Part shown: positions 2,846-34,023 of the stretch, one piece after another
Numbering within the stretch: the first letter of the stretch is position 1
How the letters are laid out: each line of letters opens with the position of its first letter
NCBI GenBank assembly: GCA_044226015.1
Contig: JBGAHS010000004.1
Coordinates: forward strand, 352,001-416,000
Length of the DNA: 64,000 nt
Source of the DNA: Candidatus Obscuribacteraceae bacterium
GTDB lineage: Bacteria; Cyanobacteriota; Vampirovibrionia; Obscuribacterales; Obscuribacteraceae
Direction of reading: 5' to 3'
The notes under the pieces: generated by a model
What the model saw: the letters and a program-made list of their open reading frames with translations, nothing else
Told to the model about the DNA's origin: nothing
Database searches by the model: none
Made by a program: the position numbers and the translations under genes

Positions 2846-5800
2846 ATGCGCAAATTTCATTTCGCATCACTATCTCTGCTCTCCTTTTTGAGCCTTTACT
2901 TCGGGCTGTATACAGCTGCACGAGCTGAAACTCCTTCTCCTCTCGATCGGACTGGCTTTCGACCGGGAGCGCAGGCTCCTCAAGCTGGTTCTAATTTGTA
3001 TCTTGGCGAACGCGCCATTCGGGTAGTAGATTTCAGCAAATCTCCGGTATTGGATATCAGAGGTAACCTTAATGTAAGTCGTGGCGCAATCCTCTACGCG
3101 GTTTCAACGAATCCGGCAATCGACACCGCAATAATCAGAGCCTACAGCATTTTCAACAGTGGATTGATTACTACTGTTCTTCCTCAAGGCGGAATTTCAG
3201 GATACTCAAATGCAATTCCGGGGCTAAATCTTTCTCTCATAGCGACTCACAAGTTGATTAATTCAGGACAAATCAGCAGTGCGGGAAACCTCAACCTTTG
3301 CGCTGGAGAATTGCTTAGCAATGGAAACAATTCCATTGTGCAAGCAATAAATAACCTGAATGTTTTCACTCCCGTTTTAGTCAATGCTGGAACAATGAGT
3401 GCGCAAAATTCCAACGTCACCATCAATAGTGCTTCATTGCTTTCGGCGACACTGAATAATTTGCCAAATTCTGCGGAACTAACCAACACCCTCAGCAATA
3501 GTTCGTTGAGCAACATATCGACGCAAATAACTAACAGCGGCTCGATACTAGCAGCTGCCGGAAACATCGATATCTCAGCAATAGCTGGCTCCGCACTAGC
3601 AATCGATAACAACCGTGGACTTATTAAATCCACCGGCGGCGACATTTCATTAGACGGCTCGTACGGCAAGAATGTTAGTTTGTTCGGTGGTACTATGCAA
3701 GGGGAAGCAGTCGCTGCCACTGCACCTGGTGCAAAGGTTGATCTCCATGCAGAAAGAATTGATGGAGCTGTTACTATCACTGGAGCCGTTGCCGCCGCAT
3801 CTGCTGAGCATGGCGACCTCAACATAGCTCAACTAAAACTTAGTGACGATCCTATCTTTGCGCTACGAGGGGGCGGCACTCTCACCATACAGGGGTTCTC
3901 CGCCGCATCTGCTAGTGACTTTGTGGCTTTGTCAGAGGGCGATATTGTCCTCTCTGGGACTGTCAATACCTCTGGTGGTTCGATAACTGCTGTGGCTGGG
4001 CACCTCTTCAAGGGTGAAAATGGTGACCCCTGTACGCACTGTTCCGGGAAATATTCAATACTAGGGTCGTCACCCAGTGGCGGTACCCTGACAATCAAAA
4101 CTGTGAATCTCGAGGCAGGTTCTAACAGCGTAACGCTTCAGGCAGATAAGCTCTACGTCGATTTCATACCAGGACCTGCTGCAAATGTCTATTCCCGGAT
4201 TCATGGAGGAAAAATCGTCATCAATGCGGATTCGATTGGTTTTGATAGCGTTCATCTCACTGTTTCTGCCGACGGTGCCACGGGGGGCACTGTTGATATT
4301 TCCACAACAAACACTCTAGCCATCGGAAATCGAATGGAGATTCATGCTGACGGAAGCAGTGGATCTGGCGGAAGAATCAGTATTAACTCAACTGCTGACA
4401 TTCTCTTGGTATCGCCGCAAGCGCTGACGGTAGACGCTTATGGTAGTGGCACTGGCGGTACTATTTCGTTAAGCAGCACCGATAGTATAGCCTTGTCTTC
4501 TTTAGCAATTAAGGCTGGTAACAACGGAGACGGAGGTAAGATAATCCTTTCTGGAGCAGATGTAGGCGCATTTGGCCATGCTGATTTGTCGGTAAACGGA
4601 AGTGGTGCTGGTTCTGGTGGGCAGATTTCGCTTCATGCAAAAGGTTCAGTGTTACTAGGTTCGAGTGAAGACCTGCAACTAGACTCACTTTCACTCTCGG
4701 CCACAGGCGGCTCCGCCAATTCATCTGCCGGTGACGGAGGTTCAATTCAAGTTAGCGCATTTGGTCTTGTCGTAGATCCTAACTCTTTGAATGTAAAAGC
4801 TCTGGGAAATCAGGGAAAAGGCGGCACGATAGACTTGTCGTCATCGTTTCGAGACCTCACTCTAAATGGCTCGATTGAAGCAAATGGACCTACGGGTGGT
4901 GGTAGCATAAAAATAAACACCGAAACACTCAAGCTTCCAACAGATCGCTCCGTATCGCTTACAGCATGCTCACTTGCAAGCGGGACCGGAGGCTCTATAT
5001 CCGTTACGAGCAGCATGAGCACGCAATATCTTTTGCTAGGACACGATAACGGTAATTTGAACATCAATACTGACGGATACAATGACGGAGGAACTGTTGC
5101 TGTCTCCGTTGCAAACTTGTCGATTGGAAGCGGCGGAATCTCAAGCCAGGGGCTTAATGGTGGAAGTGTTGATCTCAAAAGCGATGTAATTACGATAGGT
5201 TCAAACTCTATCAACTGCTCCGGATCGTCAGGTGTGGGTGGGCACATCACGATTAAGAGTAAGGATTTAACACTTGTCGATTCCAGTCTTGATGCTAGTG
5301 CATACAATGGCGGAATTATCGAAATAAGTTCTGACAAAATTACTGCTTACGGCAAAAACCTGATCAATGTTTCTGGCACCTTGCTGAGTAAGGGCGGACT
5401 AGTCTCTATTCAAACAAGTGGTTCACTAGCTCTGGGTGACCAATCAGGTCAGATAGAGTTATCTTCAATTGGTGGAGGCAATCAAGTCGTCGTGGATGCG
5501 AAAGAGGATCTTTCTCTTTTTGAAAATGCGTTTGATATAAGTCAAAGCAACAATCCCTTTGGTGGTGCAAGTATTACACTGAGTGCTGGTAAGACGTTGT
5601 CTCTATTTGATGGTATCAATGTATCTGGAACAGCAAATGGAAATGGTGGCATCATCACTATTTCAGCTAGCACATTGGCTTTGGCACAAGACAAAAATAT
5701 TCATCTGTCGGCGAATGCAGCGGGAATTGGTTCAGGCGGAACAGTAAAAATCACTACGGGGAACCCCCTTTCTATTTCTAATGCAGCAGGCAACTTATCT

Positions 5801-8800
5801 CTGTCTGCAACCGGTGGCTCTGAATTAGCAGCTTCGGGAAACGGAGGCTCGATTCAAATTTCATCGAGTGGGCCATTAGATTTATCGGCAGAAGCTATTA
5901 GCGTTGCTCCTTTAGGTCTTTCTGGGACAGGAGGAAATTATGATTTTAAAACAAGCGCCGATTTCATTTTGCATGGCTCGTTGAGTGCCGATGCAGCCGC
6001 TAACGGAGGAAATGGCGGAGTCATCAATATTTTTGCGGCTAAATCTTTTATTGCTGATAATGGAAGTGCAATTACGGCTCGGGCGTTTGGCGGAAATGGT
6101 AATGGCGGGAAAATTTCAGCCACATTTTTTACACAAACAATTCAGGGGACCTGCTTAAGCGGATTGCAGGTTATTGCTGATGCTAGTGGAAATGGTGCTG
6201 GGGGACAGATTTCACTTAGCACTGCGAGAATTCTTGGCTCCCCTGTAGTAGGTGGCGATATTTTGCTCGGAGAATCTGCGGGCGAAATCTCTCTGAGTGC
6301 AAGATCTTCCGGTTTGTCCACCGGTGGTTGTATCACTGTTCTTGCTCAAAATAATATAACGGTTAATCAGAATGCTATCGCGCTAAATGGACTTTCTCCA
6401 AGCGGTGGCTCGGGAAGATTGATTTTAGTTTCTTCTTACAATAATTACGGGGCGAATTTTGCTGGAAAGCTAACAGTGAATGGAAGTATTAGCATACTAA
6501 ATTCTTCCGGACTTCCAGCAGGAGAGATTTATCTCTCTGCAGGACGAAATGGAATTAGAGATACCACATTCGGTATCACAATCAATAGCGATCTCCAAGC
6601 CGGCTTGATCAGCGTAGTAAATTGGGGGGATAAAAACTCAACGACTGTCGTCCGGGGTGGCGTGTCGTTAACCGGAAACACGGTTGCCATAGCCACTCCG
6701 AGCTTAATCGTAGACGGTGATGATACAGCGAAGATTTCCATTAATGCTCAAAATCTTGCAATCGCTGTGCAAACCCCTGGAGCATCAAATAAATTGGTAT
6801 TAGGGCTCGCAACGACACCCGGTACCGTTTCAATCTTGTTGCCCGACGGTATGCAACAAAACGATCCGAATTTTGTTCTTCGCGCAGGTGTTTTATATCT
6901 CGGATCCAATGGAGAGATTCCGATCACAACCATAGATGACAGTCTGTATGGCTCGACAACAGAAAATTATAAGGTTAGTGGAACTGGCAGTTTTGGTTCA
7001 GCCATTGCTCCGCTGAAAATCGACACTGTTAATTTGGAAGTACATTCGGGGGGCGATGCCTATCTAGAGAATAAGTCTCAAAGCGCAGCAGCGACTATTT
7101 ATGTGAGTGGTGAAGCTCAGGGAAATCTTGATTTGACCACAGACGTCCCGCTGTTTGTGGGAAGTCAACAGCCGATCATTGCCTCGAAATTGTTTATTAA
7201 TGCCGGTGTCCAGGCAATTCTCCAGCTAGTTATTACTGATTACCTAAGTATCAAAAGTACCGGCTACGCAACTGCCTTAGTAAAAAAGAACTCTGCGCCA
7301 TTCATCGAAATAGGCGATAGTAGCGGTGCGCCCCTGTTAGTCACTAGTGATGATGCAATTTACGTAAACGGTAACCTGTCGGGAAGCGAAATTGTAGTTA
7401 ATAGCAAGAGCAGTTTGATAGTCAATGGAAATGCAGAGGCAAAACCCTCCGGACTGCAAAACGGACTTGTGGCATTTACTGGCAAGCTAGGACTGGAATT
7501 GAACGGCTCTATCGTTTCTGAAAATACAGAATTATCTACCAACGGACTAGCGAAGATTTCAGGTGACAATAGCTCGAAATCCTTATTCGTAACAAGCAAA
7601 GACTGCATTCAGCTTCCAAGTTCAAAGATTAGCACCGATTTCTTAGCAGCTTATTGTGGGTCTGTCGACCTTCAATCAAGCGACAACAGTATTTCACGTT
7701 TGATGCTGCAGTCCGCTGGAACTGGAAAGTTAAGCAGTACTATTCCCATTGAGATAATTCTGGATAAAACTTTGGTTTTTAACCCAGATCTAAACAAGAT
7801 GAATAGTGTTGCCGGCGATTTTGTAGTGAATGCTCCAGGGCTCATCTTTTCGGGACCGCTTGAAGTCGGAGCAAACCTCATTCTCCAATCAAATGCTGTG
7901 AATCATAGTTTCAGCGTTGGTTTGAATGAAGCTGGTTCTCTGAATGCCGTTGGAGCAATTCTAATCAATCAAGAAACATTCGGTCCTGTTTCAATCGGAA
8001 CGTTAACACCTGGTGGCTTGCAATTTGGAGGCAGTCATCTTTTGTCTTTTGCTGCTGGTGCCGCTGTTACTCCAAGCGTGGTTTCGTCCTCTGGTCCCAT
8101 CAAGTACACTCACGATGCAGCCGGTCAAATCCTCACAAGTGGCGGTTCGCTCGTTTTCTCAGGAAAAACATCTTTTGCAAGCACCACCGCAATTCAATCT
8201 GTGTTCGGCGCAAGTGAAGTTGAAGCCGCATCGAGCGTCGATGTCACAGGTGACTTAACTGTAAGAGCAAATGCAATCATCAATCCAAACGGGTTTAAAG
8301 CAAGCGGAATAATATATTTCGACCTTCAACTTGGTCGAACTATTACAAATCCTAATGGCGACATAGTTTTGACAAGCAACATGCTGATCAATAGTGGAGG
8401 ATCAAGTTTAACTCTTCTTGCAGCCGGTAACATTGTCGCAAATGGCGTTCCATCGATAAATCTAAGCACGGCGAAGGGGCTTGGTGGACAGCTGAACATC
8501 TTTGCTGGTTCTGCATTTGAGCAGGACCCGTTAGATCAAAGCAAATATCTGGTCACTGGCGCTTCCACCATGGGCGGTGACATATCACTTTCTAAGGTTT
8601 CTATAAATACCAGTTCAACAAGCAAATTATTTACAGCTGTAGATGGTGGAGATGTAAACCTTATCGCAAACCCCGGTACAGCTGCCCACGGCACTATCAG
8701 CGTGGGTGAGATAAACACTAGCTCGGCTTACGGAACCGCTGGTAATGTCAACATTATCGGTGCTGGTGGTATCACAGTGAGTGGTAGCATAAACACGACG

Positions 8801-11800
8801 GGGGCAGCGTCAGGAGCCAATGTTCTCTTAGCCGGATCTAGTGCCAAATATCCTATCGAGTTGAGCCATAGTCGAACCATTCAGGAGCACAGCATCTTCA
8901 GCACAGGCAGTGTCACAAGTGGCTCAGCGATTTTTGTTAGCGGTGGTATAAGTACTGGTTCAAGCCAGGGAAATGGAGGAGATATTTCAATTTATGCTGC
9001 CACAAAGATTCAAACCGGTTCCCTCACTAGTTCATCTGTACGACATAGCGGCAATATTGTAATCGGCTGTAATGATGGTTCCATATTCACAGGGGAGGTA
9101 AACACTAGCGCTTTGCCCTCTTCAGATAGTGCAGTCGCTGGCGCTGGTGGCAACTTTAAATTGCTCACTGGCGGTTCAGCCAAGATAAACGGCAGTGTGA
9201 TAACAACTGGAGGCATCCCTCTAGCTGCTGCGCATGCAATTTTAGGTGATGGTGGCAAAATTGAAATTTATGGCAAGAAAATCGGCAACGTCGGGTATGG
9301 AAGCGTTGTCATTAAAGGATACCTGGATTCTTCGGGTGGTTCATGTTCTGATTGCCCACTCTCCACTGGTGGCGCAGCTGGTGGCATATTAATTGATGTA
9401 GGCTCAATTCAAGTTGCCGGTGTGAAAGCTAATAAGACGGGGCCAGCTAGCATAATTGCATCGGGTGGCAGTTCACTGGCGCATAGCGGTAGCAATGGAA
9501 ACGTTCTAATCTCAACCTATGGTACGCAAGAGCTTCCTTCAAACTTGAATCTAGGATCGTCTCTCCTAACTGAATTTGCTTTACCAGGTGCCGCTTTCAC
9601 TGTGGGCAACCCGACGCTGGTTAATGGGACACGCGGTATAATTATCAGCGGTAGTTCTGTAGTTAAGAACAACACACCAGGGACTGGAGGAATAACTGCC
9701 AATTTTATCAGTGCCGATTCAACTCCTGGCGGATTCAAGGTTGGAAGCGTTAGTATCGTTCCCTCTGGTGGCAAAGAATCGATAAATCTTGGTGGCAACC
9801 TCGTTAATATCACTCAAGGTTCTACAAGCAGAACCAAGGTGACAGCAGCTGAGGCTCTTGTTCTTTATTTGCTTGTCCGAGGAGAATCTCAGTCAATTGG
9901 TCTGAATGGCAAAGGACAATTGACCGAATCCAATCCAGCAGGGGCAAGCAGTAATGTTGTAATTCATTCTGCTGATATTCCCCCTGCAATAACAGCTCTG
10001 AATCTTAAACCAATCGATTCTCAAAAGGGAATTGACTTTACTATTAACGGCGACTACCCGACTCTTACCCTGACTGGTACTGCCAGTAATATCAATGGCA
10101 ATCTCCTCTTCAACACCGGTGGAACCGTCGCCAGTGTTTTTTCAAGCATGCCACTGCGCGTAGCGGCTGCTGGCTCGATAACAAGCGATGCTGATTTATC
10201 TATTTCATCGACCGTAAGCAAAGGTGCTCTCTCGATTGTAAACAACGGAACTATTTCTGCCAAAAACATAATTCCAATCGCAGCATCTGCCGGAATTAGC
10301 ATTGAAAATAATTCTGGTGGTTCTTTAATCGCGAATTCAATTTTGATTCCCACGTCTTTTCTCCCAAACCGCATCACGGTTAACAGCCGCGGTGTATTTC
10401 AAAACGCGAAGCTAGTCTTCGACAATTCGACTTTTCCCCTGTCAATTACAGGGGGTAATTCTGCGAATTTAACCGGTGCGGGGAATTCCCCTTTGACGAT
10501 TAGGTTAGGCGTTAAGGGCGATGTCTCTTTAGCGGGAAATTTAGCTAGTTCTAGCTCGATAGACATTTCTGCAACAACCATCAATTCGCAGCCGACAAAT
10601 TTGACTGTGGAGAATGGTGCACAGATTAGTTCTCCAAAGCAAGTTTTGATTTCTGCCACAGGCAGTTTGAATATCAAAACTAATGCCACCATCAAGAGCG
10701 GAACCGACTTGAAACTCTCCGGACTCGGCATTTCTATTTTCCCCTCCGGAACTTTAGAAGCTGTGACAGGGCTGGCAATCGACGCAAAAGGAGGACCTTT
10801 AGATTTCGCGGGATCAGTCTCTAGCTCTCGTGGTGTCGTTAGTCTAAGTTCGTCTGCAGCAGTCTCGCTTGATGGAAAATTGGTCGCTGGAACGACCAAT
10901 GGAAACCTTCCATTTCAGCCCTTGCTCAACAAACTGGCAGCCTCTTCCATAAAAATTGTTGGCGCTTCCGTCGATCTAGGAACGCGGCAGAATACAGAAA
11001 TCACTGCATCCGGTGGGGATGTAAATATTGTTGCCAAAAGCGGTGATCTGATACTTGGGTCGGCAAGCGGCAAGAATTCAATGCAAGCATACGGCGGCAA
11101 TGTGATTCTGTTGGCTAAGGGGAATATCCTTGGTGCGTCGGGTAATGTGATCAAGGCTAGTTCGCAAGGTGGCAGCTCTGCCATTGGTGGTGGCATAGAG
11201 TTAGGAGCTGGTGTGACTAACAGCTCTATTTGGACGGCTAATTCACAGAAATCGGGAACTGTAAAAGGAGTTTTTGCAAGTGATTATGACCTGCGAAATC
11301 CAACCAGTGGCGCCAATACTAGTGGCGTTGTTTTGTCCACTTCCAATGGTAGTCCGGCGACAACAGCAAATATCAATCTAAGCAGCTCAGGTTCCCAGCA
11401 AGCAATTCTAGAGCTTCAAGGCGGAAAGCAAGTCTTTCACGCAACTGGGAGTGCTAACAAAATCAATCTGGATGGAGGCTCTTTCTCCGTAACTTCGTTA
11501 AAGCCAGTTTGTCTTAGATCAGAATCGGATATTCGTCTTCGCAATTTAGTCAGTGAGAATAATTTGAATGAAATGAAGGCTAGAACAATAGCGCATTTAA
11601 TAACAGAGGGAAGCGATGAGATTCTCGCATTGCAGGCTGAGGATGAACAAAATCATTTGAAAGCAGCACAATCAGAAATTGTGCTTCACAACGCCAATGT
11701 ATTTATACGACCGGTGGTGAAAACGATGCTTATATCTAAGTTTGGAACTATTGAATGCAGAAAAGGGGCGCAGCTTTACCTCGTTTGTGACGAAAGTAGC

Positions 11801-12178
11801 CTCCGAATAGTTAATTGCGGTAACTCCAAAGATGTGTGGATGCAGATTGGTGCCATGCGACTGCTCCTAGAGACAGGGCAGGAACTCATGGTGTCAAAGG
11901 CGTCAGAGCCATTGCTGTTTAACGACAGCATCGCACGTCGCAATCACCAGTCATTTGTACTGAGCGACTCTAACTTGCAAGGCACCGTATGTGATGCTTC
12001 CTTAGTTAGCATCCTGAGCAACGTCAAGCTTTTGAGCGTGTTGCGTCATCCTCGCAACAAAATTGAGCGAGAGTTATCAGCACGCCTCTGCAAAAATGCT
12101 ATGGCTCTTCAAACGGTCACAGGAAGGCGCGGAGCTTATCAGATAATGGGTACGACTAAGCCTCGCGTCAAAGCCTGA
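2846..12178 (+). CDS. Giant secreted filamentous haemagglutinin-like / beta-helical exoprotein (3110 aa) with a distinct C-terminal domain
   Basis: Signal peptide (MRKFHF...ARA), Gly/Ser/Asn-rich body with recurring GxGGxIxI units, and a compositionally different last ~200 aa. Confidence 0.8.
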   Translation: MRKFHFASLSLLSFLSLYFGLYTAARAETPSPLDRTGFRPGAQAPQAGSNLYLGERAIRVVDFSKSPVLDIRGNLNVSRGAILYAVSTNPAIDTAIIRAYSIFNSGLITTVLPQGGISGYSNAIPGLNLSLIATHKLINSGQISSAGNLNLCAGELLSNGNNSIVQAINNLNVFTPVLVNAGTMSAQNSNVTINSASLLSATLNNLPNSAELTNTLSNSSLSNISTQITNSGSILAAAGNIDISAIAGSALAIDNNRGLIKSTGGDISLDGSYGKNVSLFGGTMQGEAVAATAPGAKVDLHAERIDGAVTITGAVAAASAEHGDLNIAQLKLSDDPIFALRGGGTLTIQGFSAASASDFVALSEGDIVLSGTVNTSGGSITAVAGHLFKGENGDPCTHCSGKYSILGSSPSGGTLTIKTVNLEAGSNSVTLQADKLYVDFIPGPAANVYSRIHGGKIVINADSIGFDSVHLTVSADGATGGTVDISTTNTLAIGNRMEIHADGSSGSGGRISINSTADILLVSPQALTVDAYGSGTGGTISLSSTDSIALSSLAIKAGNNGDGGKIILSGADVGAFGHADLSVNGSGAGSGGQISLHAKGSVLLGSSEDLQLDSLSLSATGGSANSSAGDGGSIQVSAFGLVVDPNSLNVKALGNQGKGGTIDLSSSFRDLTLNGSIEANGPTGGGSIKINTETLKLPTDRSVSLTACSLASGTGGSISVTSSMSTQYLLLGHDNGNLNINTDGYNDGGTVAVSVANLSIGSGGISSQGLNGGSVDLKSDVITIGSNSINCSGSSGVGGHITIKSKDLTLVDSSLDASAYNGGIIEISSDKITAYGKNLINVSGTLLSKGGLVSIQTSGSLALGDQSGQIELSSIGGGNQVVVDAKEDLSLFENAFDISQSNNPFGGASITLSAGKTLSLFDGINVSGTANGNGGIITISASTLALAQDKNIHLSANAAGIGSGGTVKITTGNPLSISNAAGNLSLSATGGSELAASGNGGSIQISSSGPLDLSAEAISVAPLGLSGTGGNYDFKTSADFILHGSLSADAAANGGNGGVINIFAAKSFIADNGSAITARAFGGNGNGGKISATFFTQTIQGTCLSGLQVIADASGNGAGGQISLSTARILGSPVVGGDILLGESAGEISLSARSSGLSTGGCITVLAQNNITVNQNAIALNGLSPSGGSGRLILVSSYNNYGANFAGKLTVNGSISILNSSGLPAGEIYLSAGRNGIRDTTFGITINSDLQAGLISVVNWGDKNSTTVVRGGVSLTGNTVAIATPSLIVDGDDTAKISINAQNLAIAVQTPGASNKLVLGLATTPGTVSILLPDGMQQNDPNFVLRAGVLYLGSNGEIPITTIDDSLYGSTTENYKVSGTGSFGSAIAPLKIDTVNLEVHSGGDAYLENKSQSAAATIYVSGEAQGNLDLTTDVPLFVGSQQPIIASKLFINAGVQAILQLVITDYLSIKSTGYATALVKKNSAPFIEIGDSSGAPLLVTSDDAIYVNGNLSGSEIVVNSKSSLIVNGNAEAKPSGLQNGLVAFTGKLGLELNGSIVSENTELSTNGLAKISGDNSSKSLFVTSKDCIQLPSSKISTDFLAAYCGSVDLQSSDNSISRLMLQSAGTGKLSSTIPIEIILDKTLVFNPDLNKMNSVAGDFVVNAPGLIFSGPLEVGANLILQSNAVNHSFSVGLNEAGSLNAVGAILINQETFGPVSIGTLTPGGLQFGGSHLLSFAAGAAVTPSVVSSSGPIKYTHDAAGQILTSGGSLVFSGKTSFASTTAIQSVFGASEVEAASSVDVTGDLTVRANAIINPNGFKASGIIYFDLQLGRTITNPNGDIVLTSNMLINSGGSSLTLLAAGNIVANGVPSINLSTAKGLGGQLNIFAGSAFEQDPLDQSKYLVTGASTMGGDISLSKVSINTSSTSKLFTAVDGGDVNLIANPGTAAHGTISVGEINTSSAYGTAGNVNIIGAGGITVSGSINTTGAASGANVLLAGSSAKYPIELSHSRTIQEHSIFSTGSVTSGSAIFVSGGISTGSSQGNGGDISIYAATKIQTGSLTSSSVRHSGNIVIGCNDGSIFTGEVNTSALPSSDSAVAGAGGNFKLLTGGSAKINGSVITTGGIPLAAAHAILGDGGKIEIYGKKIGNVGYGSVVIKGYLDSSGGSCSDCPLSTGGAAGGILIDVGSIQVAGVKANKTGPASIIASGGSSLAHSGSNGNVLISTYGTQELPSNLNLGSSLLTEFALPGAAFTVGNPTLVNGTRGIIISGSSVVKNNTPGTGGITANFISADSTPGGFKVGSVSIVPSGGKESINLGGNLVNITQGSTSRTKVTAAEALVLYLLVRGESQSIGLNGKGQLTESNPAGASSNVVIHSADIPPAITALNLKPIDSQKGIDFTINGDYPTLTLTGTASNINGNLLFNTGGTVASVFSSMPLRVAAAGSITSDADLSISSTVSKGALSIVNNGTISAKNIIPIAASAGISIENNSGGSLIANSILIPTSFLPNRITVNSRGVFQNAKLVFDNSTFPLSITGGNSANLTGAGNSPLTIRLGVKGDVSLAGNLASSSSIDISATTINSQPTNLTVENGAQISSPKQVLISATGSLNIKTNATIKSGTDLKLSGLGISIFPSGTLEAVTGLAIDAKGGPLDFAGSVSSSRGVVSLSSSAAVSLDGKLVAGTTNGNLPFQPLLNKLAASSIKIVGASVDLGTRQNTEITASGGDVNIVAKSGDLILGSASGKNSMQAYGGNVILLAKGNILGASGNVIKASSQGGSSAIGGGIELGAGVTNSSIWTANSQKSGTVKGVFASDYDLRNPTSGANTSGVVLSTSNGSPATTANINLSSSGSQQAILELQGGKQVFHATGSANKINLDGGSFSVTSLKPVCLRSESDIRLRNLVSENNLNEMKARTIAHLITEGSDEILALQAEDEQNHLKAAQSEIVLHNANVFIRPVVKTMLISKFGTIECRKGAQLYLVCDESSLRIVNCGNSKDVWMQIGAMRLLLETGQELMVSKASEPLLFNDSIARRNHQSFVLSDSNLQGTVCDASLVSILSNVKLLSVLRHPRNKIERELSARLCKNAMALQTVTGRRGAYQIMGTTKPRVKA

Positions 12179-12407: not shown

Positions 12408-13040
12408 ATGTTTCCCCTCTTTGATGACAACGACGATGGTTCGTCGTGTGGCATTGCTACTAATTTTTTGATTCTTTTGAATCTGATCTCCTTTGTGTTG
12501 CAAGCGATCGATCCATCTTGGACATTGAATCTAATCTTCACTCCGTACCTGGTGTTGACGCATCAGCAAAGTGTGACTACGCTTCTTTCGCATTGCTTCC
12601 TGCACGCTGACATTGTCCACCTGGTGTCAAACCTCTGGTATTTGTTTGTTTTTGGAGATAATGTCGAAGATGAGATGGGTTCATTCAACTTCTTTGTCTT
12701 CTTTTTATGCTGCGGAGTTCTTTCTGGTTTGACAGAACTCATGCTCTTCGCTCATCATCCGCATCAGTCTTTTCTTGGTGCGTCAGGGGCTATCAGCGGT
12801 GTCATGGCGGCGTATATGGTGCTTCATCCAGGCAATCGAATTCGATGTTTCGTCGGACTTCCCTACTTCTTTCCGAAACTTCCTTCATGGATATTGATTG
12901 GTTTCTTCATAGCGATGAACTCCTTGAGTTACATGGCTGACCCGGGAATGAGTGAAGGCGTTTCATACGTCGGGCATATTGGAGGCTTTATTGCAGGGCT
13001 GGTTTTAGTTCGCTTTGCGGGTGTAAAACAGCGATATTAA
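12408..13040 (+). CDS. Rhomboid family intramembrane serine protease
   Basis: FLHADIVHLVSN, FGDNVED, catalytic GASG and GHIGG motifs. Confidence 0.93.
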   Translation: MFPLFDDNDDGSSCGIATNFLILLNLISFVLQAIDPSWTLNLIFTPYLVLTHQQSVTTLLSHCFLHADIVHLVSNLWYLFVFGDNVEDEMGSFNFFVFFLCCGVLSGLTELMLFAHHPHQSFLGASGAISGVMAAYMVLHPGNRIRCFVGLPYFFPKLPSWILIGFFIAMNSLSYMADPGMSEGVSYVGHIGGFIAGLVLVRFAGVKQRY

Positions 13041-13045
13041 ACCGA

Positions 13046-14899
13046 TTGATTTCGCTCTGTGTGTGGAAAATTAAGACGAGACAGGTGGTGCCGATTGCTG
13101 TGGAACGTCCGTTTCGAGAACAGGTAAAAACCGCTGAGCTTGTCTCTGATGAGTCCAGCGACGTAGCTGCTCATCGTTCTCTGCCTAAGTCTTGCCCCTG
13201 TTGTCAGCGTTATTTCTCCTCTGAAAGTCCTGAGACGGTTTGCCCAGAAGATTCTAGCTTGCTGGTTCCTTTGAGTTCTCCCTTAACTGGAACAACAATT
13301 GATGGGAAATACAGGGTCGAACATCTTCTGGCTAGTGGGGCATGGAGCGAGGTCTTTCTAGCAAGCCACGATGAACTCGACAAAAAAGTGGCGATTAAAG
13401 TTTTACACCTGAATTTGGTTTCCGAGCCAGCAAGAGTCAGGCGCTTCGAAGAGGAAGCGCGAAATGTGAGTCGTCTCCATGACCCAGGAATTGTGAGTGT
13501 TCACGATTTTGGACTCACTGCTGATGGGCGTCCTTACATGGTTATGGATTACATCGAGGGCGTAAGCCTCAGTGAAGCAACCAAGCAGCGGCTGCTAGAC
13601 CCGCTTACGGCAACTCATTTGTGTATTCAACTCGCAAGTGCTTTGCAGACGGCTCACGAGCACGGAATCATACACAGAGATGTAAAACCTGCAAACGTCA
13701 TGCTTTCTGAAAACGAGGGAAAGGAATCTTGTTTTATTCTTGATTTTGGCGTTGCAAAAACCATCATGGGCGAGCAAAAATCTGATGTGACCAGAACTGG
13801 TGAAGTGCTCGGTACGCCTGCCTATATGAGTCCTGAACAGTGTCGCAGCCAGGCACTTGATGCGCGTTCAGATATTTATTCTCTGGGCTGTGTTTTTTAC
13901 GAGATGCTCACCGGCGAGCGACTCGTAAAAGGCGACAATTCATTCGTTTGCATGAAGTGGCACATGGAAGGCATGCCCCCCGAAATCACAGGGGAACATC
14001 CAATTTTCTACAGCCTCTCATCTATTGTTTTGAAGATGCTGGAGAAAAAGCCAGAGCATAGATATCAAAGCATGAGTGCCCTTGTCGCTGACCTGCAGGA
14101 TGCTTTAAGTGGTGCGGTGATTGTTCCGCCCGCCAGAAAGATGAAGATTGATAAGCGCTATTTGTTGATGTTGATTTTGCCGATTCTTGCTTGTCTGTTT
14201 TTTCTAATTCCGCGCGGAAGCGGACCTGTTTTGGTTCCAGAGCACCCTCCAAACGCCATCGAACGAAATGCGCTAAAGAAGGTCGCCGAGAAAACTCTGG
14301 CTGACAAGTTGGAAAACGGCTTCAGAGATTACATTCAGCAGCCGCACTTCAAAGAGAAAAAGAAATATTTTGAAGATTTATTTGCCAGAAGAACTCCTCT
14401 TCCAAAAACGGATGTTCCGCAAGAAATGATGGTCAGTGTTTTAGAGCCGATAACTACGAAGCTTCCCGTTATTCTTGGCGATGTTGATGTTGACGTCACT
14501 TACACTCAAGGACCAGTCTCATTAGTTTTGCATTCCCCATATCCTGTTAAATGGAAAGTGCACGCAGCAAGTGGTGTTAATCTCGTGAGAGTGGTGTTGG
14601 AAGGAGACGCGAAAAGTACTGTTCAAGATTTGCCGAGCGATATCGAAGTGATGGATCACAGCGGAGCCGACGCGCGTATCGCTAATAGCCCTTTAGAAAA
14701 TGGTCTTGCGAATCAATCGTTTTTGAGAAAAACTGGTGGTGGGGCAATATCGCGTTTTGGTATGACTTGGACTACCTTTCAAGTAAAACGTCTGGGTGAA
14801 GATATGAAATTTGAGGTTGGTCCCGGTGACAAAGAGTGGCTTTCCGAGTATATTCTGCGGCTTATGAAAGAAGACGAGGTTCTGGGTCCAGCATTTTAA
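13046..14899 (+). CDS. Hanks-type Ser/Thr protein kinase with N-terminal CPxC/CPxD motif, one TM and a C-terminal ectodomain (start uncertain, possibly GTG 13085)
   Basis: VAIK, HRDVKPAN, DFG, GTPAYMSPEQ and DIYSLG motifs; TM segment LLMLILPILACLFFLI. Confidence 0.93.
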   Translation: MISLCVWKIKTRQVVPIAVERPFREQVKTAELVSDESSDVAAHRSLPKSCPCCQRYFSSESPETVCPEDSSLLVPLSSPLTGTTIDGKYRVEHLLASGAWSEVFLASHDELDKKVAIKVLHLNLVSEPARVRRFEEEARNVSRLHDPGIVSVHDFGLTADGRPYMVMDYIEGVSLSEATKQRLLDPLTATHLCIQLASALQTAHEHGIIHRDVKPANVMLSENEGKESCFILDFGVAKTIMGEQKSDVTRTGEVLGTPAYMSPEQCRSQALDARSDIYSLGCVFYEMLTGERLVKGDNSFVCMKWHMEGMPPEITGEHPIFYSLSSIVLKMLEKKPEHRYQSMSALVADLQDALSGAVIVPPARKMKIDKRYLLMLILPILACLFFLIPRGSGPVLVPEHPPNAIERNALKKVAEKTLADKLENGFRDYIQQPHFKEKKKYFEDLFARRTPLPKTDVPQEMMVSVLEPITTKLPVILGDVDVDVTYTQGPVSLVLHSPYPVKWKVHAASGVNLVRVVLEGDAKSTVQDLPSDIEVMDHSGADARIANSPLENGLANQSFLRKTGGGAISRFGMTWTTFQVKRLGEDMKFEVGPGDKEWLSEYILRLMKEDEVLGPAF

Positions 14900-32190: not shown

Positions 32191-34023
32191 ATGAGATCAG
32201 CTTCTGATTGCCGCGCTCGCTTCTTCTCAGCGTCGCTCTTGGCTATGTTGGCATTTGCTACCGGCAGTAGCGCTTTCGCGCAGTACCAGCATCTGCCAAA
32301 GTTTGAGCAGTCTTTCCAGAACCTGCCTGGGCATCCAGACCCCAATTCTCAATTCGTCGTTCTGAACTCTGGTGTCGCATCGATTGCAGCCCAGAGATTT
32401 CCGCTGCCCAAAGACACGTTTACCTACAACTTAGCGGGAATGACAGTGTTTCCCTATTATCAGGCTTCGCCTGAACTTAAAGAGTTCTTGAATAATGCAA
32501 CTACATTTGGTGGCATGCCTTTAACGGCGTTTCCGACGCAGCCAAATTTACCTCAATTCACCTTGCCTCAGACTGATACCATCAGATTTAGCGTTCCGAT
32601 TCCAAAAATTCGAGAAAATCGCGCATCTGCTATGAAGATGGCAATGAAAGATAAGCGAATGAAGGACGAGATACCGTGGATGGTAGCTCACGAGGGTGGA
32701 CAAGCTTTTGGTTTGCCTGGTGATACTGAAGCTCTGGTTATTGTGAAGCAAGGTTCGATGTTCGGTGCCTGCGCATCGAGAACAATGGTATTGCGCTGCG
32801 GAACTATGTGGGTTATGACAGGTTCACGTCCAGCGGCAGTTATCACCAAATACGGTGCGGTTGGTGTTCGTCCAAATAGCATTGCAGCCATCGAGCAAAC
32901 CTGGTTCAACAAGGTAACTGCGGCAGATTTGTACGGTCAGCCGCTAGAGATTCAGCTAACTGCCGGAGACAAACCTGCGTTGAAGGAAATGGCTATTAGC
33001 AAACTGACAGTAGAGAAAGGAAAGGAATTGATCTTTTCGGATTCTGCAGTAGCAAGCTCAGGAACCTCAGATTTCGCTGATTCCGGGAATGCAGAAGTCA
33101 TCTCCGAACTTAAAGATGTGAACAAGGTTCTTCCTGATTTGAAGATTCTCAAGGCAAAAGTTGATGCTGATGCATCAGCATTTGTTTCTGAATTAAAGAC
33201 TATCAATCCGCCATTCTCGAATCTGAAAATGAGTACTGATTACTCAAAAATGTTCCAGGAATTCGGCATAACTGCCAAGATGCGTCGCGAGGAAATGAAG
33301 CGTCAAGACCTGATGAAGAGCAACATCGCAAGCAAGAATGCCGTATACAAAGTGTCTATGGATTCGAAATACTACGTGCCCGTGTATTCAAAAGCTCAGG
33401 AAAAAGGTCCACAAATTTTTCCGAATGTTGCTGAAGAGTTGAATACAGTGAAGCTAGCAAAAGGCATCGCTAAAATTCTCGGAACTTGTGACTTGAAAGC
33501 TGATGCAAATGGCAAGCCAATCATGACTACAGGTGAAGCCGTTGTTGCCGTTTCAGAGCCAGTTTTAATGGATCTGGCAGACTGCAGAGTCTGGATAAAT
33601 GGAGGCGCAGTTGCTCAGCTCGCAGCGAAAAATGACATTGTGATTATTCGCAATTTGAGTGAACAACGCGCAAACAGCGTTAAAGTGAAGGTTAAAGGGC
33701 GCAACATCGAACTACCAATTGGTTCTGAAATCGTAGTGGCTAAATCAGCCCCCGAACTTTTCACTGAGCTGAAAAATGATGGAGTCGAACGTCGCAACGT
33801 TCACAGCATCGAAATCTCTGATGGTTCGGCGATGATCAATAAGAGCGATGTTCGTCTTACCACTTTGATGCAATACAGCCCAATATTGCGCAAGCTTTAT
33901 AAGAGCCAAGACCTCAACGATAAGAAATTGGTTGCGCAGCTGATGAAGACAAACGTGGCACTAAATATGGTGGCGCCTGCTCAAAATTACAGACGTATGG
34001 CTGGCTTACCAGCTAGTAACTAG
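32191..34023 (+). CDS. Secreted hypothetical protein with two FecR-like beta segments and a C-terminal domain shared with the 3110-aa protein
   Basis: Signal peptide ending AFA; manual alignment of the C-termini. Confidence 0.75.
   Translation: MRSASDCRARFFSASLLAMLAFATGSSAFAQYQHLPKFEQSFQNLPGHPDPNSQFVVLNSGVASIAAQRFPLPKDTFTYNLAGMTVFPYYQASPELKEFLNNATTFGGMPLTAFPTQPNLPQFTLPQTDTIRFSVPIPKIRENRASAMKMAMKDKRMKDEIPWMVAHEGGQAFGLPGDTEALVIVKQGSMFGACASRTMVLRCGTMWVMTGSRPAAVITKYGAVGVRPNSIAAIEQTWFNKVTAADLYGQPLEIQLTAGDKPALKEMAISKLTVEKGKELIFSDSAVASSGTSDFADSGNAEVISELKDVNKVLPDLKILKAKVDADASAFVSELKTINPPFSNLKMSTDYSKMFQEFGITAKMRREEMKRQDLMKSNIASKNAVYKVSMDSKYYVPVYSKAQEKGPQIFPNVAEELNTVKLAKGIAKILGTCDLKADANGKPIMTTGEAVVAVSEPVLMDLADCRVWINGGAVAQLAAKNDIVIIRNLSEQRANSVKVKVKGRNIELPIGSEIVVAKSAPELFTELKNDGVERRNVHSIEISDGSAMINKSDVRLTTLMQYSPILRKLYKSQDLNDKKLVAQLMKTNVALNMVAPAQNYRRMAGLPASN

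Follow-up and report, generated by a model that had tools for sequence, protein, structure and literature searches.

A stretch of 64,000 nucleotides from a genome of Candidatus Obscuribacteraceae (order Obscuribacterales) was analysed over its full length (the window; G000:C7:352001-416000 in genome numbering, G000 being this genome). It encodes a giant protein of 3110 aa and a protein of 610 aa that end in the same uncatalogued domain of ~170 aa, and across the order this domain co-occurs with a family of predicted 12-stranded outer-membrane barrels. The best explanation, which stands at about an even balance of probability, is that the tail serves as the periplasmic docking and retention module of a dedicated barrel conduit.

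The similarity of the two tails had been proposed in a first-pass annotation of the window. BLASTP of the last 200-210 residues aligned them significantly (E 9e-10, 25% identity over 131 aa), and their Smith-Waterman score of 99 was reached by 0/2000 shuffles (mean 32.8, maximum 74); chance similarity was rejected on the basis of this shuffle test and of the matches to the family hidden Markov model (HMM) described below. The motifs quoted in the annotation were present in both tails, but the family consensus differs from them: the segment given as DxxL is usually SEFSxxS and LxKxxxAL is usually LKxAA. The second protein had been placed at 33520-34023, which is its tail only, although its open reading frame (ORF; 32191-34023) is real. 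Nor is it the unrelated protein that had been supposed, as it has no foreign passenger and contains the domain a second time, in degenerate form; an internal copy was also found in its paralogue at G000:C8:138883-140691 (HMM E 5e-7). Sec signals are likely on both proteins by inspection and by a crude hydrophobicity plus AxA rule, under which 49/64 family members had a signal-like N-terminus, compared with 2175/5453 other ORFs. The 3110-aa giant had no Pfam, NCBIfam or PDB sequence match; the composition of its body (G 14%, S 14.5%) suggests a beta-helical fibre.

Size, position and range of the domain family: the HMM was built from the two tails and iterated over the 16,661 ORFs of the genome until convergence, which gave 71 domain matches in 64 proteins, with tandem copies in several of them. 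The domain ends 40 aa or less from the C-terminus in 62 of the 64, and is present on 46/65 proteins of at least 2000 aa (largest 14,391 aa). Together, the 64 genes span 612 kb of 8.19 Mb (7.5% of the genome's DNA). In a family alignment of 42 of the 64 sequences (A1; mean column identity 28%), K149 was the sole invariant residue (42/42), and R98 (41/42), G77 (39/42) and Y164 (34/42) were strongly conserved. When 1.84 billion representative proteins were searched with the HMM, 2,729 clusters were matched; in all of the best 150 of these the domain lay within 29 aa of the C-terminus. It was found in 74 of the 81 genomes of the order (one relative's open frame of 25,007 aa, G040:C3:174652, carries it), in 0/9 other members of the class and in 0/150 other genomes of the phylum, so both the lineage specificity and the C-terminal bias that had been proposed were borne out. 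Pfam and NCBIfam gave no consistent family for the 42 aligned copies, each match being confined to a single member, and the models of the type IX secretion system (T9SS) in both databases matched none of these copies. A PDB sequence search with the domain returned only de novo proteins (E at least 0.004), and the ESM Atlas gave no usable match. The domain is uncatalogued, and the concern that it might be an already characterised family fell away.

Candidate partner barrel: one unannotated family was present in 8/25 domain-centred loci of relatives (6 genomes); in two cases its gene follows a giant gene at a distance of only 3 nt. It was found from these gene neighbourhoods and not from a crude barrel scan of the proteome, in which its members are inconspicuous because they end in long disordered tails. 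This genome has three members (C11:696040, C8:340215 and C9:602851). The family had no Pfam, NCBIfam or PDB sequence match (PF04575 matched 0/10 barrel proteins) and is named in the sources as hypothetical only. Its model (pLDDT, the predicted local distance difference test, 83) contains 12 strands with a helix before strand 1 and another after strand 12, and an outer-membrane location is predicted. The closest folds are 12-stranded channels, namely COG4313 (Z 16.3), GalP/KdgM/NanC (15.5-16.2), FapF (14.9) and autotransporter barrels (13.6-14.6). By ESM features the barrel resembles unannotated, Slam and BBP2 barrel clusters in the ESM Atlas (Slam-annotated cluster 0.94). The C8 paralogue (G000:C8:340215-343508) has a ~700-aa Pro/Ala/Lys-rich C-terminal extension, possibly a periplasm-spanning tether, and a Skp-like gene before it. 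At G000:C9:602851-608472 (L167) a barrel gene, a TPR-CHAT protease-like gene and a stand-alone domain gene are clustered, with a similar order in L161; TPR genes flank many other barrel genes.

Association of domain, barrel and chaperone: phylogenetic profiling over the 81 genomes yielded the barrel as a co-occurring translocon candidate (both families in 72 genomes, the domain alone in 2, the barrel alone in 0 and neither in 7), and the barrel was found in 0 of the same 150 genomes outside the order. BamA was still seen in five of the seven genomes that have neither. Match counts of domain and barrel were correlated (Spearman 0.78); domain counts near 43 are lower bounds, split matches inflate the barrel counts, and kin are not independent. 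A domain or giant gene was present in 18/40 barrel-centred loci; in the barrel subfamily most like the seeds the figure was 14/20 (~1.5 expected), and in an insert-bearing subfamily, to which the C11 and C8 genes of this genome belong, 4/20 (~2.2 expected). Giant and barrel genes lie 3 nt apart at L173 and L176, and stand-alone domain genes lie directly upstream of barrel genes at L178, L179 and L222. An extra OmpH/Skp-like paralogue is encoded immediately before C8:340215 and, on C12, between two giant genes; with a single-protein query it was found in 48/52 genomes with strong domain matches, 9/22 with weak ones and 0/7 with none. Complex prediction of the window tail with the C11 barrel scored 0.37 (best control 0.01), which is weak support; at least 67% of contacts were common to the runs, with a partner pLDDT of at least 68.

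Several points weigh against a dedicated conduit. The genomes are related, so co-occurrence statistics overstate the association, and the joint losses fall in 4 genera, with only two of them in genomes more than 90% complete. The 14/20 set was selected by similarity to seeds that had themselves been chosen for adjacency, and 0/3 barrel genes of this genome adjoin a giant gene (one lies two genes from a stand-alone domain gene). The complex score counts as weak: in the benchmark, 116/157 solved and 2/215 mismatched pairs attained the mark, and at 0.60 or below only 18 solved pairs and both mismatches remain. Moreover, the folded pair is not known to be cognate, and the barrel used came from the subfamily without clear synteny. 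Small-molecule porins are among the folds closest to the barrel. The genome also has alternative exits to offer, in the form of two secretins and several TolC-like proteins, and two neighbouring giants on C10 lack the terminal domain altogether.

Proposed mechanism: judging from the signal-like N-termini, the giant would first be exported to the periplasm by Sec. The extra Skp/OmpH-like chaperone would then hold the chain unfolded, as its linkage and the analogy with Slam suggest. The folded tail domain would bind the barrel, to which co-loss, synteny and the weak complex prediction point. Finally, the chain would thread through the pore and fold outside, with the ~170-aa domain staying behind as a stopper in the manner of an autotransporter divided into two genes; retention is proposed because a domain of this size is too large for a 12-stranded pore, judged from autotransporter- and FapF-sized barrels. 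The periplasmic location, the threading through the barrel and the retention by the folded tail are all parts that we infer. Stand-alone and kinase-borne copies might, more speculatively, plug, regulate or sense this barrel. The wider claim is of a new secretion type in Obscuribacterales, an autotransporter split in trans. Its barrel, stand-alone and 12-stranded, would be unrelated to Omp85 or Slam and would operate with a dedicated Skp. Cargo reaching 25,000 aa would be recognised by a C-terminal domain with a repurposed FecR fold, which would also retain it, and the kinase and the stand-alone copies would monitor the system. The probability of this claim falls somewhat short of even. The uncharacterised secretion route suggested in the first-pass annotation has thus gained an uncatalogued FecR-like C-terminal domain with a co-occurring candidate translocon, while export itself is inferred only.

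Known export routes were searched for in the genome (92% complete). The autotransporter family PF03797 and the LapG protease PF06035 had no match, and the controls of both searches gave signal; LapG-controlled release was rejected on that ground. TpsB (ShlB), the two-partner secretion (TPS) domain PF05860 (at E up to 1) and SlipAM/DUF560 (PF04575) also had no match in the genome, with silent controls in each case. Direct scanning of 16 giants gave no Pfam TPS match, and a divergent N-terminal cap is conserved among the giants. The statement that there is no autotransporter barrel and no adjacent TpsB gene therefore holds for the whole genome, subject to the silent TpsB controls. A single Omp85 is present, in a BamA-skp context. 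Weak ShlB matches occurred in 10/81 genomes of the order; the three inspected were BamA, and a hidden TpsB was rejected for this reason. No TpsB distinct from BamA was found in the 81 genomes (3 of the 10 weak matches inspected).

With BamA and two secretins available, the giants might cross the outer membrane through one of these, the barrel to which the domain binds being an anchor or receptor only. This would fit the co-loss and synteny equally well, and autotransporter passengers need BamA, but no dedicated secretin link was seen (one secretin has a single giant gene ~1.7 kb away, and the genes that separate the two are unrelated). The extra Skp-like holdase also tracks the system and, by analogy with the role described for Slam in PMC9090332, would suit unfolded passage through a narrow pore. 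We therefore regard an anchor without a conduit as unlikely.

Predicted fold and relation to FecR: the AlphaFold2 model of the giant's terminal domain (pLDDT 92.5, predicted template modelling score 0.87) has eleven strands followed by three helices. In Foldseek the top ranks were FecR-family anti-sigma domains (4m0n, 4m0h and 6ovk; E 0.003-0.04), and VIA-align over 48,161 chains gave Z 8.9 to 4m0h and 8.2 to 6ovm, the next being 3.4. The match covers model residues 5-132 (root-mean-square deviation 2.5-2.8 Å over 97-98 residues, 6-17% identity), so the FecR-like beta region of the first-pass annotation is upheld as a predicted juxtamembrane FecR fold. Beyond it lies a long final helix with LKxAA that is specific to the family. 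The hhalign probability of the domain against this genome's own FecR proteins was 58. PF04773 exceeded its cut-off in 0/42 domain copies and, among 55 representatives, only in a partial N-terminal copy of one (protein P0009); on one internal copy in this genome it gave E 0.013. The domain thus resembles the periplasmic juxtamembrane subdomain of FecR/PupR anti-sigma proteins (PF04773; 4m0h, 4m0n, 6ovk, 6ovm) in the predicted fold of residues 5-132, and differs in having its own C-terminal helix and in lacking a membrane anchor and a cytoplasmic anti-sigma domain. The FecR layout of N-terminal cytoplasmic domain and transmembrane helix was not seen: outside the signal region a helix is present in only 1/64 proteins, where it is located after the domain. 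A Gly-Thr self-cleavage motif is described for FecR and FoxR in PMC9249621. The residue after the Gly aligned to RGT of ordinary FecR proteins is Ser in 28, Ala in 25, Thr in 7 and another residue in 2 of 62 copies, and both window proteins have Gly-Ala at the site, the 3110-aa giant with Ala instead of Thr. Gly-Thr self-cleavage is therefore not a property of the family, and autoproteolysis was rejected. Ordinary FecR-domain proteins, separate from the tail family, are encoded at L064 (G000:C7:686000-696000) and L066; those of L064 adjoin a CHASE2 histidine kinase, and a homologous gene is present in L066.

The predicted FecR fold raises the alternative that the domain, in the manner of FecR, senses or signals from the periplasm and reports on the barrel or the envelope, the giants having recruited it secondarily. 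In its favour, a hybrid histidine kinase (G000:C6:296935-300378, L054) carries the domain, followed by a Pro-rich linker and a single transmembrane helix, and this fusion is found in 6 genomes of the genus (this one and 5/7 others; relatives L239-L243). From its position before the helix, the domain is predicted to lie in the periplasm, and in a membrane-anchored protein it cannot be an export tag; on its long linker it would possibly make the kinase a sensor that reaches the outer membrane. One closed chromosome of a relative has only three stand-alone domain copies; that relative and one further genome have only stand-alone copies of 310-350 aa yet keep a barrel gene, and a TPR-CHAT gene lies between barrel and stand-alone copy. 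On the other hand, a transmembrane helix or cytoplasmic output is found in only 1/64 members, the FecR match stops before the C-terminal helix, and the strict terminal placement on 46 giants is left unexplained. No linkage to an extracytoplasmic function sigma factor or a TonB receptor was noticed among the neighbours, which were clustered by BLAST and not all annotated, and none of the neighbours of the 64 domain genes in this genome was conserved beyond common kinases and regulators. A primary sensing role is improbable on balance.

Proteins that carry the domain: the long members also have an N-terminal region in common and are therefore paralogues rather than diverse cargo. Pfam enzyme domains were found in none of 15 giants (one DUF4097 solenoid match only), in none of 55 shorter representatives and in none of 15 of the 16 small and medium members of this genome, the exception being the hybrid histidine kinase; the repeat body of the giants had no PDB sequence match. 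Some 14 members of up to 610 aa, including the 610-aa protein of the window, consist of a signal-like peptide, one or two domain copies and little else. The family search thus produced many C-terminal matches, but not on diverse passengers, and the comparison with the C-terminal domain (CTD) of T9SS cargo drawn in the first-pass annotation fails as regards a tag on diverse cargo, given a single paralogous family without enzyme passengers, near passenger-less copies and the kinase-borne copy. The same facts make a general sorting tag like that of T9SS or type XI secretion, itself exported and perhaps cleaved, very improbable. It would also require a folded 170-aa domain to pass a pore for which it is large, and among the aligned linkers no conserved motif for cleavage was noticed. 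What speaks for such a tag is the strict terminal position, the Slam-annotated ESM Atlas cluster among the barrel look-alikes and the N- and C-terminal similarities among the 46 giants, which show no clear congruence (rho 0.16, compared with at most 0.22 in 500 permutations), so that the tail may swap between paralogues. The two C10 giants without the domain (G000:C10:420504-429701 and C10:433155-442265) keep the N-terminal region and end after the linker with an acidic tail; they are possibly released forms.

A beta-solenoid-like fold that terminates a repeat protein, the tandem copies and the weak complex score would also be expected if the domain were a structural end-cap, oligomerisation or folding-initiation part of the fibre without barrel contact, its co-occurrence with the barrel arising from one envelope module. 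However, the domain occurs without a fibre in the ~14 short proteins here and in genomes without giants, and its stand-alone copies lie directly upstream of barrel genes at the three loci named above, which makes an end-cap distinctly unlikely.

As a docking and retention module of a barrel conduit, the tail would belong to a system that works, by analogy, like two-partner or type XI secretion, with a dedicated terminal cargo domain, a cognate barrel and Skp. With two-partner secretion (type Vb; FhaB/FhaC, HMW1, CdrA) it has in common a signal-bearing, very long G/S/T/N-rich exoprotein and a partner barrel gene that is often adjacent, and some TpsA proteins are known to be retained by their C-terminus. 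It differs in that there is no PF05860 match (controls silent) and no Omp85-family TpsB, the 12-stranded partner barrel has no POTRA, and the proposed recognition module is C-terminal. In type XI secretion (Slam/DUF560), according to 10.1101/2024.09.26.615229, Sec-dependent cargo is unified by a C-terminal domain and the cognate outer-membrane barrel is encoded nearby; Skp acts there as a holdase (PMC9090332). The terminal domain on Sec-type cargo, the nearby barrel and the Skp-like gene are shared, and TPR genes often flank the barrel here. By its model, the cargo domain is a FecR-like beta-domain with helices, unlike the 8-stranded TbpB-type barrel of Slam cargo. The translocon candidate has 12 predicted strands and no PF04575 match, and the cargo here measures 2,000-25,000 aa. 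The Slam barrel has 14 strands.

Classical autotransporters (type Va) and FapF also have a 12-stranded barrel with a helix before it, and the fold matches BrkA, AIDA-I, NalP and FapF with Z 13.6-14.9. Here, however, barrel and passenger are separate genes, PF03797 and PDB sequence matches are lacking, and porins score as high or higher; the tail is modelled as a domain of soluble type with a helix at its end, not as a PF03797 barrel fused to a passenger. T9SS likewise uses a terminal module, the CTD, to route large surface proteins or hold them at the outer membrane, but the CTD is an Ig-like sandwich, so that the fold differs, and the cargo here is non-diverse. In LapA-type type I secretion the terminal module that holds a large surface protein is N-terminal and on Sec-independent cargo, whereas here it is C-terminal and no LapG was found.

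The literature covered gave no account of the domain, of the barrel or of giant proteins in Obscuribacterales (most subscription literature being outside the scope), and FecR and Obscuribacter had 0 mentions in the accessible parts of giant-protein preprints (supplements outside the scope). Taken by itself, the domain is a new family with a predicted FecR fold; the system would be of a new kind if export were confirmed. No known export route was detected although 7.5% of the genome's DNA encodes domain-ending genes and relatives reach 25,007 aa. If the barrel is the conduit, this would be a new two-component outer-membrane route outside the Omp85, Slam, secretin and TolC families, with a FecR-fold domain used for docking instead of iron signalling. 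Surface display of very large proteins is a possible use, and the system opens a way to study how this uncultured relative of the cyanobacteria lives.

Table 1. Features of the two domain-bearing proteins, in window coordinates.
Feature	Position	Strand	Basis or remark
Giant 3110-aa Gly/Ser/Thr/Asn-rich protein	2846..12178	+	1 of 46-gene paralogous family in this genome
Likely Sec signal peptide of giant, residues 1-27 (ARA|E)	2846..2926	+	Sequence, heuristic only
N-terminal region common to giant paralogues (limits approximate), no PF05860 TPS match	2978..3835	+	
Linker motif, consensus kPiaf, between repeat body and terminal domain	11498..11515	+	Alignment, sequence
C-terminal domain of giant, residues 2940-3102	11663..12151	+	Family HMM E 5e-38; AlphaFold2 model
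FecR juxtamembrane-like beta subdomain of giant's terminal domain	11660..12043	+	VIA, Foldseek, hhalign
Family-specific C-terminal helix with invariant Lys (LKxAA)	12059..12118	+	Model and alignment
G-x-Y motif after C-terminal helix	~12131-12139	+	
610-aa protein with a likely signal peptide, a low-complexity N-terminal part and two domain copies, the first degenerate and the terminal one complete	32191..34023	+	
Degenerate internal copy of the domain's beta part, residues 195-301 of 610-aa protein	32773..33093	+	HMM E 1.4e-4
Complete C-terminal domain of 610-aa protein, residues 438-604	33502..34002	+	HMM E 1.6e-40

Neighbouring genes and other observations: a rhomboid protease gene (12408-13040) and a Ser/Thr kinase gene (13046-14899) follow the giant of the window on the same strand; the rhomboid pairing was not repeated among the other 63 domain genes. 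A single-copy predicted outer-membrane barrel of 433 aa with a C-terminal Phe (G000:C3:324866-326167) lies in an operon with glycosylation- or polysaccharide-like genes. A second set of giants of up to 7753 aa, with acidic charged N-termini and without a signal-like peptide or the tail domain, is encoded at G000:C12:364671-387932, C9:323696-341266, C11:406378-421575, C3:280331-294004, C3:294415-305280 and other positions.

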